DNA of 5,927 nucleotides, taken from a virus (taxonomy: Duplodnaviria > Heunggongvirae > Uroviricota > Caudoviricetes). The notes under the pieces were generated by a model, which did no database searches, was not told the origin of the DNA, and saw only the letters and a program-made list of their open reading frames with translations. Shown piece by piece: positions 2,033-5,115 of this stretch. The stretch is from the IMG/VR virus record IMGVR_UViG_2698536458_000009; one strand, 5' to 3'. The position numbers were made by a program, and so were the translations under genes. How positions within the stretch are numbered: the first letter of the stretch is position 1; each line of letters starts with the position of its first letter.

Positions 2033-3082
2033 TCAGAAATATGATTCACACAACGCTGGTTGTTCGTGCCGCTTACCGGGAGCAACNNNNNNNNNNNNNN
2101 NGAGCAACCAGGGGTTTTCAAAATTCCGGTCCGGCCCAAAAAACGTCGTCGCTCGCTGAACAAATTCCGTTCCCGCTTTCCCGGTCGCCGCCAGGTATCT
2201 CGCGTAACGCCTCACACCATCCAGCATGGTCTCTGGTGGCACCCCCTCGCGCAATCTGGCCTTCCAGGCACTGAATGCGGATTTCTTCGGGTTTGCCCCG
2301 GCACGCAACGGGTATTCCCGCCAGACCTGTTCGAACACATCCGGATAATCCACTCGTCCCACAGGCTGCCCGGTGTTTTCCGGGGCTACCCGATCGGCTT
2401 CCCGCTGAATGGCGGAATCGGCTTCAGGCTGCTGCAGTTGGAGTGATTGCTCCGGCCTTGCGGTCATCACCTGCTGCACAGCGCCCGAATCGGCTTTCAG
2501 CGCATACGCTGAATCGGCTTCCGGTGTCGAGCCTGCTGGCTGACCAGGATTGACGGTCTGAACATCCCCTGCCTGGTTCGTGGCGTTTTTTACGCCATGG
2601 ACCATAGTGTTTTGATCTTCTTTATCTGTATCTTTATCTGTATCTGTCGTGACTCGTCGTGACATGTGCGTGACATTTCGTGACGCGCCGTGACAATCGC
2701 CATTTTGTTCCCGCTTTCTTTCCCTCTCTCGCTGCGCCCTCTTGCGCTCTGCAGGAGATTTTGCGGTTTGCGAAATATTGCCGTTGTCCTCTTTAAGCAC
2801 CTGGCGTTTTTCCCATCCAGTGATTAAATCACCATCAAGTACCCGCCCCTGCATCGTCTGCAAAATTGAATCAATTACCTCTTCTGTCACGTCGAGCGCA
2901 CTTGCCAAATCTTCTGTCGTGACATCAATGTGACCTCGCGTGACATTTCGTGACGCGCTCACCAGGAGGTGGATATACACTGCCATCACTGTTGCAATTG
3001 GCTGCCCTGACACCCTGGCAATTGTTCGCCACTTAGGGTCATTTGGCATGTCATGCCATAATCTGAGCCAGGCGTTAGCCAT
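2033..3082 (-). CDS. Replication initiator / replisome organiser (lambda O-like; Rac YdaU-like), about 349 aa, with a low-complexity repeat linker containing the putative origin
   Basis: Position between the cII-like and dnaC-like genes. N-terminal domain (WLRLWHDMPNDPKWRTIARVSGQPIATVMAVYIHLL) and C-terminal domain (VFEQVWREYPLRAGANPKKSAFSAWKARLREGVPPETMLDGVRRYARYLAATGK) resemble phage replication initiators. The track start at 3088 is GTG; the ATG at 3082..3080 has GAGG 5 nt upstream. The C-terminal 17 residues and the stop lie beyond the N-run at 2087..2101, so the 3' end is uncertain. Confidence 0.7.
   Translation of the reverse strand: MANAWLRLWHDMPNDPKWRTIARVSGQPIATVMAVYIHLLVSASRNVTRGHIDVTTEDLASALDVTEEVIDSILQTMQGRVLDGDLITGWEKRQVLKEDNGNISQTAKSPAERKRAQRERERKREQNGDCHGASRNVTHMSRRVTTDTDKDTDKEDQNTMVHGVKNATNQAGDVQTVNPGQPAGSTPEADSAYALKADSGAVQQVMTARPEQSLQLQQPEADSAIQREADRVAPENTGQPVGRVDYPDVFEQVWREYPLRAGANPKKSAFSAWKARLREGVPPETMLDGVRRYARYLAATGKAGTEFVQRATTFFGPDRNFENPWLLXXXXXVAPGKRHEQPALCESYF
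2087..2101. other. Masked/undetermined bases (15 N) near the 3' end of the O-like gene
   Basis: Run of N flanked on both sides by the direct repeat gagcaac (2080..2086 and 2102..2108). Confidence 0.99.
2619..2642. repeat. Tandem 12-bp AT-rich direct repeat (tctttatctgta x2) adjacent to the iteron cluster; candidate DNA-unwinding element
   Basis: tctttatctgta occurs at 2619..2630 and 2631..2642, followed by a partial copy (tctgtcgt). It encodes the DTDKDTDKED segment of the O-like protein. Confidence 0.5.
2648..2694. repeat. Iteron-like cluster A: five CGTGAC motifs phased at 10-11 bp inside the O-like gene (putative origin of replication)
   Basis: CGTGAC at 2648, 2658, 2669, 2679 and 2689. 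The cluster contains the 21-mer gcgtgacatttcgtgacgcgc (2668..2688), which is repeated exactly in cluster B. Confidence 0.6.
2918..2958. repeat. Iteron-like cluster B: four (C/T)GTGAC motifs phased at 10-11 bp; shares an exact 21-bp repeat with cluster A
   Basis: CGTGAC at 2918, 2939 and 2949, and TGTGAC at 2929. The 21-mer gcgtgacatttcgtgacgcgc sits at 2938..2958. An inverted copy GTCACG lies at 2886..2891. Confidence 0.55.
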
Positions 3083-3153
3083 ACTCACCTCTTCTGATAC
3101 CGAATCTTTTTACTCACGAGTTGCCGGGAGCGATTCGATATGGCTATTGTCAG

Positions 3154-3579
3154 TCAATGTACTGCCACAGCATTTCCTGCCGGGCCACCACGGTTCATCT
3201 GATTGAAACCGGCGATTGCCACTGCGACAAAATCATCAGCGTCTCTCACCAGTCGTTCATGCGTCTCCACCAGTTCCCGAAAATAAGCTGAACTGTGGCT
3301 GCGCATTCGAGCCACCAGCGGAGGTGGCATTGCCCTTTCGATCGCAGGTAACAACGCCTGAATTTTTTCAACAGCGTCAGGGGTGTCTTTATCCAGCCAA
3401 CGGAAAATCTTTTGGGTGTTGAGATAAAGCGTGTTGTGCTTGCTGTCGTTATGCAGAACCGGAAACGTCATTCCCAGTTCGAAATAAACCCTGGTTATTT
3501 CAGCTGCCGGAACTTTTTCACCGTCCGGATGCGCCCAGGCTTTCATCGCCATGCGGATGTGTTCATGCTTGATTTTCAT
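3154..3579 (-). CDS. YdaT-family protein (lambda CII-position analogue; annotated in some genomes as a toxin), 141 aa
   Basis: ATG at 3579..3577 overlaps the stop of the upstream cro-like gene (ATGA overlap). N-terminal MKIKHEHI and overall size match my recollection of Rac YdaT; the family call is from memory, not a search. Confidence 0.6.
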   Translation of the reverse strand: MKIKHEHIRMAMKAWAHPDGEKVPAAEITRVYFELGMTFPVLHNDSKHNTLYLNTQKIFRWLDKDTPDAVEKIQALLPAIERAMPPPLVARMRSHSSAYFRELVETHERLVRDADDFVAVAIAGFNQMNRGGPAGNAVAVH

Positions 3580-3839
3580 GAATCAACCCCCGCCGATGGT
3601 TGTGTGTTAGCCTGAAACTCAGCAGGCAAGCCGTCAGTTGGGTTGGGGTAGGTTTTACTGTCAATCTCATGTGGGGTCACCACCCATCCCGTTGCTTCAC
3701 ACCAACGTAATATTTTTTCTCCTGTAAGTTTTGCACGCCCCGTTATAACGTGGCTGACCATCCCTTGGGATGCGCCAACAATCTCAGCAAATGAACTCTG
3801 GGTTATATGAAAATGATGCAAATATTCTCCAAGATTCAT
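3576..3839 (-). CDS. Cro/YdaS-like HTH DNA-binding protein (lytic-side repressor), about 87 aa
   Basis: HTH-like segment QSSFAEIVGASQGMVSHVITG. Divergent from the repressor gene across an AT-rich intergenic region. The ATG at 3839..3837 has an agggcgga purine-rich stretch just upstream and is preferred over the track's ATG at 3866 (MVTHHIGRI extension), which has no RBS. Stop TGA at 3576..3578. Confidence 0.7.
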   Translation of the reverse strand: MNLGEYLHHFHITQSSFAEIVGASQGMVSHVITGRAKLTGEKILRWCEATGWVVTPHEIDSKTYPNPTDGLPAEFQANTQPSAGVDS

Positions 3840-3950
3840 AATCCGCCCTATGTGATGTGTTACCAATGCATAATTAATAGCACTGTTATTTTTAAAAGTA
3901 AATAGTGATGCTATTTCAAAGTGATTAGCAATCTTATTAGAATTGGATGT
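3840..3950. promoter_or_regulatory. Divergent promoter/operator region between the cro-like and repressor genes
   Basis: About 110 bp, AT-rich, non-coding, between divergent HTH genes. Repeated partial palindromes: AATAGCACTGTTATT (3876..3890) and AATAGTGATGCTATT (3901..3915), both of the form AATAG-N5-YTATT and 25 bp apart centre to centre. TAGCA/TGCTA occurs three times and AGTGAT at 3904 and 3920. No -35/-10 hexamers could be assigned confidently. Confidence 0.5.
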
Positions 3951-4451
3951 ATGAAAAGAAAATCATTGTCAGACACCGACCTCAACGCCGCCAGAAGACT
4001 GAAAGAAATCTGGATGGCAAAGAAATCTCAGTTGGGATTGACTCAGGAACGTGCGGCGGAAATTATGGGGTTTTCAACACAAGGGGCGGTAAGTCACTAC
4101 CTAAATGGTCAAACCCCACTAAACCTTGAGGCTGTTCTAAAGTTTGCTGGCTTACTGAAAGTTCCCCCTGAGTCAATCAGGCCAGACATGGTAGATTTGC
4201 TGCAAATTGCAAGGATGTATTGTCGAGAACCACAGCAAGATAACATAGTCGCATTACCAGCAGACACAGAACAAACAGAGGATGAACTACCGTTTGCCGT
4301 AGAGCCGATGGAACGAGATTTAATCCATACGTTCAGAGCTTTTCCGAAAGAAGATCAAGAACACATGCTTCAGGAGATGAAAGATAAAAAAGAATCAATG
4401 GATCGTACGGTTGCGCGGTGGTTAGCTGCACAAAAAGGCCGTCGCGCCTAA
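3951..4451 (+). CDS. paaR: HTH (Cro/C1-type) transcriptional repressor, PaaR-like (ParE-associated regulator); candidate prophage repressor lacking a LexA/S24 peptidase domain
   Basis: HTH segment LGLTQERAAEIMGFSTQGAVSHYLNG. First gene of an operon with the PaaA-like and ParE genes, and divergent from the cro-like gene. The ATG at 3951 (MKRKSLSD...) is preferred over the GTG at 3921. The C-terminal part shows no Ala-Gly cleavage site or Ser/Lys dyad region by eye. The paaR symbol is inferred from operon context. Confidence 0.7.
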   Translation: MKRKSLSDTDLNAARRLKEIWMAKKSQLGLTQERAAEIMGFSTQGAVSHYLNGQTPLNLEAVLKFAGLLKVPPESIRPDMVDLLQIARMYCREPQQDNIVALPADTEQTEDELPFAVEPMERDLIHTFRAFPKEDQEHMLQEMKDKKESMDRTVARWLAAQKGRRA

Positions 4452-4470
4452 ATCAGAGGAGATATGTAAA

Positions 4471-4665
4471 ATGAGTACAGTCCTTTCCCCAATGGTTTCA
4501 GAATTTGAGACAGTTGAGCAAGAAAATAGTTACAACGAATGGCTGCGGGCCAAAGTAGCAGCAAGCCTCGCGGATCCCCGCCCGGCGATTCCGCATGATG
4601 AGGTAATGGCGGAAATGGAACAAATTATTGCCCAAATTGCTGCTGCAACTCACAGAGGTGAATAA
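4471..4665 (+). CDS. paaA: PaaA-like antitoxin (ParE-associated antitoxin), 64 aa
   Basis: ATG at 4471 with AGAGGAG 9 nt upstream. The stop TAA (4663..4665) overlaps the ParE ATG (TAATG). The segment SPMVSEFETVEQENSYNEWLRAKVAASLADPRPAIPHDEV closely matches my recollection of E. coli O157 PaaA2; this was not verified by alignment. Confidence 0.8.
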   Translation: MSTVLSPMVSEFETVEQENSYNEWLRAKVAASLADPRPAIPHDEVMAEMEQIIAQIAAATHRGE

Positions 4666-4955
4666 TGTTACCCGTTTTATGGCTACCATCTGCTCGTGAT
4701 GATTTGCGCCAGATCGTAGCCTACATAGCTAAAGAAAATCCCGCGGCAGCACGCAGAATGAAAATTCGAATTGAAACATCCGTTTTGCCGCTCACAGAGC
4801 ATCCTTACCTGTATCCTCCAAGCGAGCGAGTTCTTGGTCTTCGTGAAATTGTAACTCATCCTAACTACATCATCCTTTACCGAGTAACAGCATCAAGCAT
4901 AGAAGTAGTAAATATTGTGCATTCTCGAAGACAGTATCCAGGCAAAAACAGTTAA
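4665..4955 (+). CDS. parE: ParE/RelE-superfamily toxin (ParE-like), 96 aa
   Basis: The ATG overlaps the antitoxin stop, with AGAGGTG 4 nt upstream. ParE-like sequence features: N-terminal WLPSARDDLRQIVAYIAKENPAAARRM and C-terminal REIV...YIILYRV...IEVVNIVHSRR. Stop TAA at 4953..4955. Confidence 0.85.
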   Translation: MLPVLWLPSARDDLRQIVAYIAKENPAAARRMKIRIETSVLPLTEHPYLYPPSERVLGLREIVTHPNYIILYRVTASSIEVVNIVHSRRQYPGKNS

Positions 4956-5007: not shown

Positions 5008-5115
5008 AAACAATAGCNNNNNNNNNNNNNNNNNNNNNNNNNNNNNNNNNNNNNNNNNNNNNNNNNNNNNNNNNNNNNNNNNNNNNNNNNNNNNNNNNNN
5101 NNNNNNGCTATTGTT
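5008..5115. repeat. Perfect 10-bp inverted repeat (aaacaatagc / gctattgttt) directly abutting both ends of an 89-nt masked segment; unknown palindromic or small element
   Basis: Left arm 5008..5017 and right arm 5107..5116 are exact reverse complements. N-run 5018..5106 lies between them. Confidence 0.4.
5018..5106. other. Masked/undetermined bases (89 N)
   Basis: Run of N in the supplied sequence; content unknown. Confidence 0.99.

Follow-up and report, generated by a model that had tools for sequence, protein, structure and literature searches.

The locus analyzed here raises the question of why two adjacent phage regulatory genes share their stop and start codons, and whether such an arrangement binds the two products into an obligate pair. 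It lies in a 5,927-nucleotide stretch of DNA (the window) from a virus of the class Caudoviricetes (IMG/VR record IMGVR_UViG_2698536458_000009), in which a cro-like gene runs directly into a ydaT-like gene on the minus strand. The original prediction, made from the letters alone, read this junction as translational coupling with no room for a tR1/nut-type element and implying obligate co-expression, and regarded the two genes as a possible YdaS/YdaT module of a toxin-antitoxin-like or Cro/CII-like kind whose derepression would make the neighboring PaaR-like repressor conditionally essential. Our analysis indicated that the junction is, letter for letter, the sequence of a known YdaT operator, and this changes how both the overlap and the missing spacer are to be understood.

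Gene organization around the junction

Read directly on the minus strand, the stop codon of the cro-like gene (TGA, 3578-3576) and the start codon of ydaT (ATG, 3579-3577) share four nucleotides, ATGA (3576..3579), within the sequence ggcgggggTTGATTcATGAaAATCAAgcatgaac. The predicted overlap was borne out by the sequence, by the list of open reading frames, and by the RefSeq annotation of Escherichia coli RMDEC465, the E. coli genome nearest to the window (96.8% identity over 2 kb), in which both overlapping coding sequences are called. Because of this 4-nt overlap, there is no intergenic space between the two genes. A Shine-Dalgarno-like GGGGG run (3587..3591, minus strand) is located 7 nt 5' of the ydaT ATG, within the cro-like coding sequence.

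The cro-like open reading frame is listed at 3576..3866, and its first ATG, at 3839, is the most likely start, giving a gene (3576..3839, minus strand) for a protein of 87 aa that is annotated as the same coding sequence in RMDEC465. Its assignment as an XRE-type helix-turn-helix (HTH) protein is based on a sub-threshold match to HTH_3 (20.8 bits, under the cut-off of 23) and a match to phrog_35, "transcriptional repressor" (8e-17). The protein had been expected to belong to the YdaS family, an expectation that the profile search contradicted: it gave no match to the YdaS profile PF15943 even at E<=10, while the YdaS proteins of CP-933P and Rac scored 46.5 and 107.7 bits, respectively, in the same run. 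Nor did BLASTP align it with Rac YdaS, or tblastn with CP-933P ydaS. As a small HTH protein encoded by the first gene of an operon divergent from a repressor, it is a functional Cro analogue by position and not a member of the YdaS family.

The second protein, encoded at 3154..3579 (minus strand; 141 aa), matched PF06254 with 36.9 bits (5e-9; cut-off, 21), phrog_163, "CII-like activator", with 3e-40 over residues 1-128, and, along its full length, the Protein Data Bank entries 3c4r (4e-79) and 8bt1 (CP-933P YdaT; 3e-70). The predicted family membership thus held for this partner, which these sequence matches identify as a true transcriptional activator of the YdaT/CII-like kind, with a POU-type HTH. 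Its identity is 76.6% to CP-933P YdaT and 33% to Rac YdaT, and two YdaT crystal structures exist at 77-88% identity to it. The recognition helix keeps its DNA-contact residues Arg60 and Trp61 (...QKIFRWLD...), the equivalents being Arg60 in CP-933P and R57/W58 in Rac. Differences from the CP-933P and 3c4r proteins are found mainly in the α2-α3 loop (residues 41-53), which the authors of the CP-933P YdaT structure think to be a DNA contact.

The pair is divergent from the PaaR-like repressor and lies 5' of O-like and DnaC-like genes, in agreement with the Cro/CII-like position originally assigned to it. The O-like replication initiator gene (2033..3088, minus strand; phrog_3729, 4e-229) is the next gene of the rightward operon, beginning 65 nt after ydaT, and contains iteron-like CGTGAC repeats at 2643-2697; the genes 3' of ydaT are O-like, DnaC-like, DUF1627, and DUF977/Ren-like. 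On the plus strand, a PaaR/DicA-like HTH repressor gene (3951..4451; HTH_3, 8e-9; DicA match in the C-terminal part), the analogue of CI, is followed by a paaA2-like antitoxin gene (4471-4665; PF21217 PaaA2, 3e-23) and a parE-like toxin gene (4665-4955; PF05016 ParE, 1.8e-17), so that an HTH_3 regulator, a PaaA2-type antitoxin, and ParE stand co-oriented at 3951..4955, as in a PaaR-PaaA-ParE three-component system. The repressor resembles CP-933P PaaR2 only in its C-terminal 44 aa (tblastn, 52%; residues 123-166).

The 111-bp divergent intergenic region contains operator-like inverted repeats (3876..3915; arms at 3876-3891 and 3900-3915 in the repeat search), which overlap a candidate PR promoter for the cro-ydaT-O operon (TTTACT-17-TATTAA, 3874..3902, minus strand) that was picked by eye and falls under the scan threshold. 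These repeats bear no likeness to the consensus published for CP-933P, GTTTAGTAA, in keeping with a different immunity. A PRM-like promoter (TTCAAA-17-TAGAAT, 3915..3943, plus strand; 9/12 in the promoter scan) has a -10 element ending 7 nt before the repressor ATG and therefore predicts a leaderless mRNA; paaR2 is described as being translated leaderless, like cI (PMC8630535). Collectively, these features mark the window as immunity and replication DNA from a lambdoid E. coli prophage of the CP-933P/Sp12/Rac type.

A search for the elements that separate cro from cII in lambda agreed with the view that a nutR/tR1-type spacer is absent. The gene spacing is -4 nt; a scan restricted to hairpins, which detects no Rho-dependent sites, found no terminator-like hairpin on the minus strand in the cro-ydaT-O-DnaC-like operon as far as it lies within the window; and boxA-like matches numbered 2 against 3.98 expected, neither being on the operon strand 3' of cro. 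The Rfam search at E<=1 returned chance-level matches only, none of them near the junction. With no terminator-like hairpin, boxA-like matches below chance, and no Rfam element, the rightward operon looks uninterrupted. The ydaS-ydaT mRNA of Rac is bicistronic, and ydaT has no separate promoter there (PMC11879457); by analogy with Rac, co-transcription of cro and ydaT in the window is plausible.

The gene boundary as a probable YdaT operator

The ATGA overlap lies at the center of a perfect 18-bp palindrome (3586..3569), a feature that the original prediction had overlooked. This 6-N6-6 inverted repeat, TTGATT-cATGAa-AATCAA (TTGATTcATGAaAATCAA; 3569..3586), is identical in every letter to the footprinted YdaT operator of CP-933P. 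Prolic-Kalinsek 2023 reported a DNase I footprint of CP-933P YdaT on 5'-TTGATTN6AATCAA-3' at site OM, on the ydaS/ydaT border (PMC9986795), and this operator was defined by footprinting, isothermal titration calorimetry (ITC), and the oligonucleotide TCATGCTTGATTTTCATGAATCAACTCCAT, which reads as the window in reverse complement over the length of the box. The Rac YdaT-box, ATGATTCATGAAAATCAA, was also footprinted and overlaps the ydaT ATG (Wons 2025; PMC11879457); it differs from the window box by one base, and Rac and CP-933P YdaT each recognize the other's box (PMC11879457). Given this identity with footprinted sites, YdaT probably binds at 3569..3586. The assertion that the junction leaves no room for a tR1/nut-type element was thus right about the missing spacer but misleading: the junction itself has the sequence of the YdaT operator, and the lack of a spacer does not mean the lack of a control element because this element overlies the gene boundary.

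The core pattern of the box occurs twice in the window against 0.26 occurrences expected. The other copy, CTGATTcgcgtgAATCAG at 852-869 inside the DUF1627 gene, encodes LIRVNQ and is probably a chance match that is not conserved, its left half being CTGGCA (LARVNQ) in 31 of 46 homologues and CTGGTA in CP-933P.

Relation to characterized prophage switches

The closest characterized system is CP-933P/Sp12 of E. coli O157:H7 (PMC8630535, PMC9986795, 8bt1), in which paaR2-paaA2-parE2 faces ydaS-ydaT in a gene order common to the window, with an identical 18-bp operator at the junction, the same ATGA overlap, and an O-like gene downstream. CP-933P-type loci were recovered with the sequence of the OMR oligonucleotide; in one of them (L088), YdaT is exactly the 8bt1 sequence, and ydaS (100 aa, ending in ...DGVDS*) terminates in the same ATGA. 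The published CP-933P cloning primers (R-YdaS, ...TCATGAATCAACTCCATCAG; F-YdaT, ATGAAAATCAAGCATGAACAC) agree with the overlap. YdaT, PaaA, and ParE are shared between the window and CP-933P (77%, 75%, and 67% identical, respectively), whereas the cro-like protein is unrelated to YdaS, the repressors have only the C-terminal 44 aa in common, and both the divergent-region operators and the sequence past the box, where the PRE933P elements must lie, are different. The window is thus a mosaic with an immunity different from that of CP-933P.

The racR-ydaS-ydaT locus of the Rac prophage in E. coli K-12 (PMC11879457) likewise has its YdaT-box centered on the ydaT ATG; unlike the window, it has a gap of 22 nt where the genes could overlap, a YdaT of only 33% identity, and no paaA-parE genes. 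[quoted passage not shown] The cI-cro-cII logic of lambda is shared as well, in that a repressor faces a cro analogue that is followed by a CII analogue activating an antisense promoter at the cro/cII boundary; in contrast to lambda, the window has no spacer, no nutR/boxA, and no tR1-like terminator, and its activator site overlaps the start codon of the activator's own gene. YdaT has a POU-type fold and sits as a symmetric tetramer on an inverted repeat, whereas lambda CII binds direct TTGC repeats. A junction of this kind has already been studied in CP-933P and Rac, and for this reason the locus is ordinary: it adds a heteroimmune member to a type of prophage switch that is known and has been dissected by experiment.

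Conservation of the junction among related loci

A survey of 129 loci with close ydaT relatives, of which a first survey had covered 84, revealed that the cro-like open reading frame ends at +1 (ATGA; C terminus, ...DS*) in 79 loci and at +14 (gcaTGAac; C terminus, ...IHENQA*) in the remaining 50. The overlap is therefore conserved and not accidental, since 129 of 129 related loci end the cro-like frame in the ydaT start region. The upstream cro-like proteins themselves fall into about nine mutually unrelated clusters, all ending inside this region, and the window's own cluster shows both frames (6 loci at +1 and 12 at +14). In the 84 loci surveyed first, the core GATTCATGAAAATCAAGCATGA is nearly invariant, with single synonymous changes in the ydaT-coding part in five, and every junction variant listed has a purine-rich, Shine-Dalgarno-like run 7-9 nt 5' of the ATG. 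A scan of genome contigs with YdaT returned three loci and added little.

The full box carries TGA in all three frames, at -6 (tTGAtt), +1 (aTGA), and +14 (caTGAa), so any recombined cro allele would be closed within 20 nt. Since about nine unrelated cro-like genes all end in the ydaT 5' module, the overlap looks like a by-product of the operator. On this reading, the operator forms part of the ydaT module, at the border across which a variable cro/repressor immunity cassette recombines.

A start-centered box is found both with and without an overlap: the upstream gene overlaps ydaT by 4 nt in Actinobacillus phage pPE4 and by 17 nt in Klebsiella phage ST405-OXA48phi1.2, and is separated from it by a gap of 22 nt in Rac and 10 nt in Rac-SA53. 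Farther out in the family, in ZF40, Stenotrophomonas BUCT708, and about 80 IMG/VR loci, the predicted start is preceded at 36-58 nt by a (C/T)TGATT-N6-AATCAA box, the start codons in this survey being assigned by a heuristic. In roughly 28 of these loci, the upstream open reading frame takes its stop codon from the TGA of the left half-site. In the enterobacterial MKIKHE clade, the box has the ATG at its center. It may be, although this is rather less likely than not, that the YdaT-box acts as a portable module boundary throughout the family, placed in a spacer 36-58 nt upstream in the distant relatives and fused onto the start codon in the MKIKHE clade, where it would supply the ATG, stop codons in three frames, and the activator site of an antisense PRE-like promoter.

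Putative reverse promoter

In CP-933P, YdaT turns on PRE933P, a promoter located between ydaS and ydaT (Jurenas 2021; PMC8630535). In Rac, YdaT activates a reverse promoter inside ydaS, approximately 190 bp from the box, by 29-fold and raises racR expression, and mutation of the box abolishes this activation (Wons 2025; PMC11879457). The same authors noted that CP-933P YdaT seems to be without effect on PaaR2 (PMC11879457), unlike the activation of PRE933P reported by Jurenas.

In the window, the 37 nt at 3551..3587 (plus strand) reproduce without a difference the 5' end of the PRE933P reporter fragment used in the published work, comprising the F-PRE primer (ATGCGGATGTGTTCATGCTT, matching 3551-3570 on the plus strand) and OM. 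The identity with CP-933P ends one base past the box; the sequence beyond 3587, at the 3' end of cro, is unrelated, and the core elements of PRE are therefore not placeable by homology. A strict promoter scan of the plus strand from 3586 to 3839 found nothing, and a relaxed scan of the same region gave two weak candidates (8/12), one at 3754-3782 and one at 3813. The former (CTGACC-17-AACAAT, 3754..3782, plus strand) lies inside the cro-like gene approximately 170 bp from the box and might serve as the PRE-like promoter.

Taken together, the junction is very probably a conserved ydaT 5' module, with the YdaT-box placed on the start codon and presumably serving a reverse PRE-like promoter, and with the ATGA overlap arising mainly as a by-product. 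According to this model, the PaaR-like repressor, the analogue of CI that precedes paaA-parE, faces a rightward operon of cro-like, ydaT, O-like, and DnaC-like genes, the first two of which would be co-transcribed from PR. The spacer of the 18-bp palindrome TTGATT-CATGAA-AATCAA supplies the ATG of ydaT, and the overlapping TGA serves as the stop codon of the cro-like gene. A YdaT tetramer would bind the box and activate the reverse promoter on the plus strand of the window, which would be read antisense through cro toward the repressor-antitoxin-toxin operon, as by lambda CII at PRE. Tetramer formation, box binding, and activation of a reverse promoter by the window YdaT are predicted by analogy with the experiments on the CP-933P and Rac proteins.

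Alternative explanations

The view behind the original prediction, that the ATGA overlap is itself the selected trait and that ydaT is translated only by ribosomes terminating on cro, which would fix the Cro:YdaT ratio, appears rather unlikely to us but deserves consideration. ATGA is the classic arrangement for termination-reinitiation, all 129 close loci overlap and none is gapped, and a UUCAUG/CAUGAA hairpin (-3.6 kcal/mol) could mask the AUG until a ribosome translating cro opens it. However, obligate coupling does not follow from the overlap: ydaT has its own Shine-Dalgarno-like G run 7 nt 5' of the ATG, comparable purine-rich runs occur in every junction variant seen, overlaps of 4 nt and 17 nt are interchangeable even within one cro family, and Rac and Rac-SA53 keep both the box and the start despite their gaps. 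Nor is the local RNA fold at the junction unusual (z = -1.58). Since ydaT has a Shine-Dalgarno sequence of its own, termination-reinitiation coupling is possible and not required, and the translation of ydaT may be coupled to that of cro without being obligatorily so. The same folding data make it scarcely credible that the palindrome works as an RNA hairpin presenting or hiding the AUG/UGA instead of as a protein-binding DNA site. Pairing of its 6-bp arms would place the AUG in a loop, yet the resulting hairpin is weak (-2.5 kcal/mol), as is the one mentioned above, and the minimum-free-energy fold makes no use of the arms; moreover, DNase I footprinting and mutagenesis of the box have directly established identical or near-identical sequences as DNA operators.

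A toxic, toxin-antitoxin-like module, in which derepression would kill the host and the PaaR-like repressor would be conditionally essential, like RacR of the Rac prophage, is improbable at this locus. The idea draws on the Pfam names YdaT_toxin and YdaS_toxin and holds for Rac, where racR is not deletable unless ydaST is absent and overexpression of YdaT leads to filamentation and death, partly via the host rcsA promoter. Off-target binding is also conceivable for the window protein because Rac and CP-933P YdaT recognize the same box. In the closest characterized relative, however, YdaT (77% identical) is not toxic, a paaR2 stop mutant of the cloned immunity region on a p15A plasmid is viable with all cells ydaST-on, and even wild-type reporter cells mostly grew ydaST-on (PMC8630535). 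The authors of the CP-933P work and Jobling regard YdaS and YdaT as Cro/CII analogues and not as a toxin-antitoxin pair, a view that now prevails in the field, the toxicity of Rac YdaT being that of an overexpressed transcription factor, and the cro-like protein of the window stands outside the YdaS family in any case. If the repressor of the window is essential at all, the downstream O/DnaC-like replication genes would be as likely a cause as YdaT, and lysis genes are equally conceivable.

Implications for annotation and for the YdaT family

These findings suggest that the locus should be annotated as a heteroimmune, CP-933P-like immunity region with CI, Cro, and CII analogues and a PaaA-ParE addiction module, and not as a YdaS/YdaT toxin-antitoxin pair; the Pfam/PGAP label "toxin YdaT family protein" is misleading here. 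If the portable-boundary reading is true, the overlap and the lost tR1/nut space would be consequences of operator compaction, and YdaT sitting on the initiation region of its own gene could exert feedback on cro-ydaT transcription or on the recombination of immunity modules. Beyond annotation, the locus has little significance, and the family-wide reading of the YdaT-box as a boundary between modules is its only point of mild novelty. That the YdaT operator accompanies the ydaT 5' end across many unrelated cro alleles, which explains the overlap, is nevertheless a modestly useful generalization, and the box provides a simple sequence signature for PRE-type control sites in a large class of enterobacterial prophages.

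YdaT-box patterns beyond the ydaT start

The core YdaT-box pattern occurs once more at 852-869, as CTGATTcgcgtgAATCAG; this second copy falls within the DUF1627 gene and is separated by 2.7 kb from the one that spans the ydaT start. It is also present in Rac and codes for LIRVNQ. Its left half is missing in 31 of 46 homologues and in CP-933P, and this second copy is probably coincidental. Among distant YdaT relatives (the ZF40-type CII-like loci L146-L225, together with L143 and L144), the (C/T)TGATT-N6-AATCAA box is situated 36-58 nt 5′ of the start codon rather than over it, and the cro-like ORF upstream often terminates at the TGA of the box.

Antisense hairpins and ori-like features

Two weak terminator-like hairpins followed by T runs were located on the + strand, at 3345-3370 (antisense to ydaT) and 3690-3717 (antisense to cro), each with a 5-bp stem, which is at chance level. 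The former could terminate an oop-like antisense RNA, and the latter would lie in the path of the candidate PRE-type transcript.

The O-like gene contains an ori-like architecture (2574-2697 and 2913-2954), comprising a hairpin with a 13-bp stem (2574-2604), a tandem pair of TCTTTATCTGTA (2619-2642), and five iteron-like CGTGAC repeats spaced by approximately 10 bp (2643-2697); CGTGAC clusters again at 2913-2954. Three masked or unresolved N runs (1878-1964, 2087-2101, and 5018-5106) break the DnaC-like and O-like reading frames, as well as the region 3′ of parE. Separately, a YdaT gene 86% identical to that of the window was found on a 1,797-bp contig (L005) in a MAG labelled as the Gram-positive Collinsella sp.; this contig is almost certainly a mis-binned E. 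coli prophage fragment.

Repressor expression and immunity

In the + strand stretch 3915-3953, a PRM-like promoter (TTCAAA-17-TAGAAT; 3915-3943) stops 7 nt short of the repressor start codon, an ATG at 3951, which predicts a leaderless repressor mRNA; paaR2 and lambda cI are reported to be leaderless too (PMC8630535). The window repressor (3951-4451, + strand) is a domain mosaic. In the comparison with L088, a CP-933P-type locus, likeness to PaaR2 was confined to residues 123-166 (52%), whereas the N-terminal HTH domain is unrelated to that of PaaR2. The cro-like gene and operators are likewise swapped relative to CP-933P, whereas the paaA-parE and ydaT modules are retained. The exchange of the HTH domain, cro-like gene, and operators makes the locus a heteroimmune variant.
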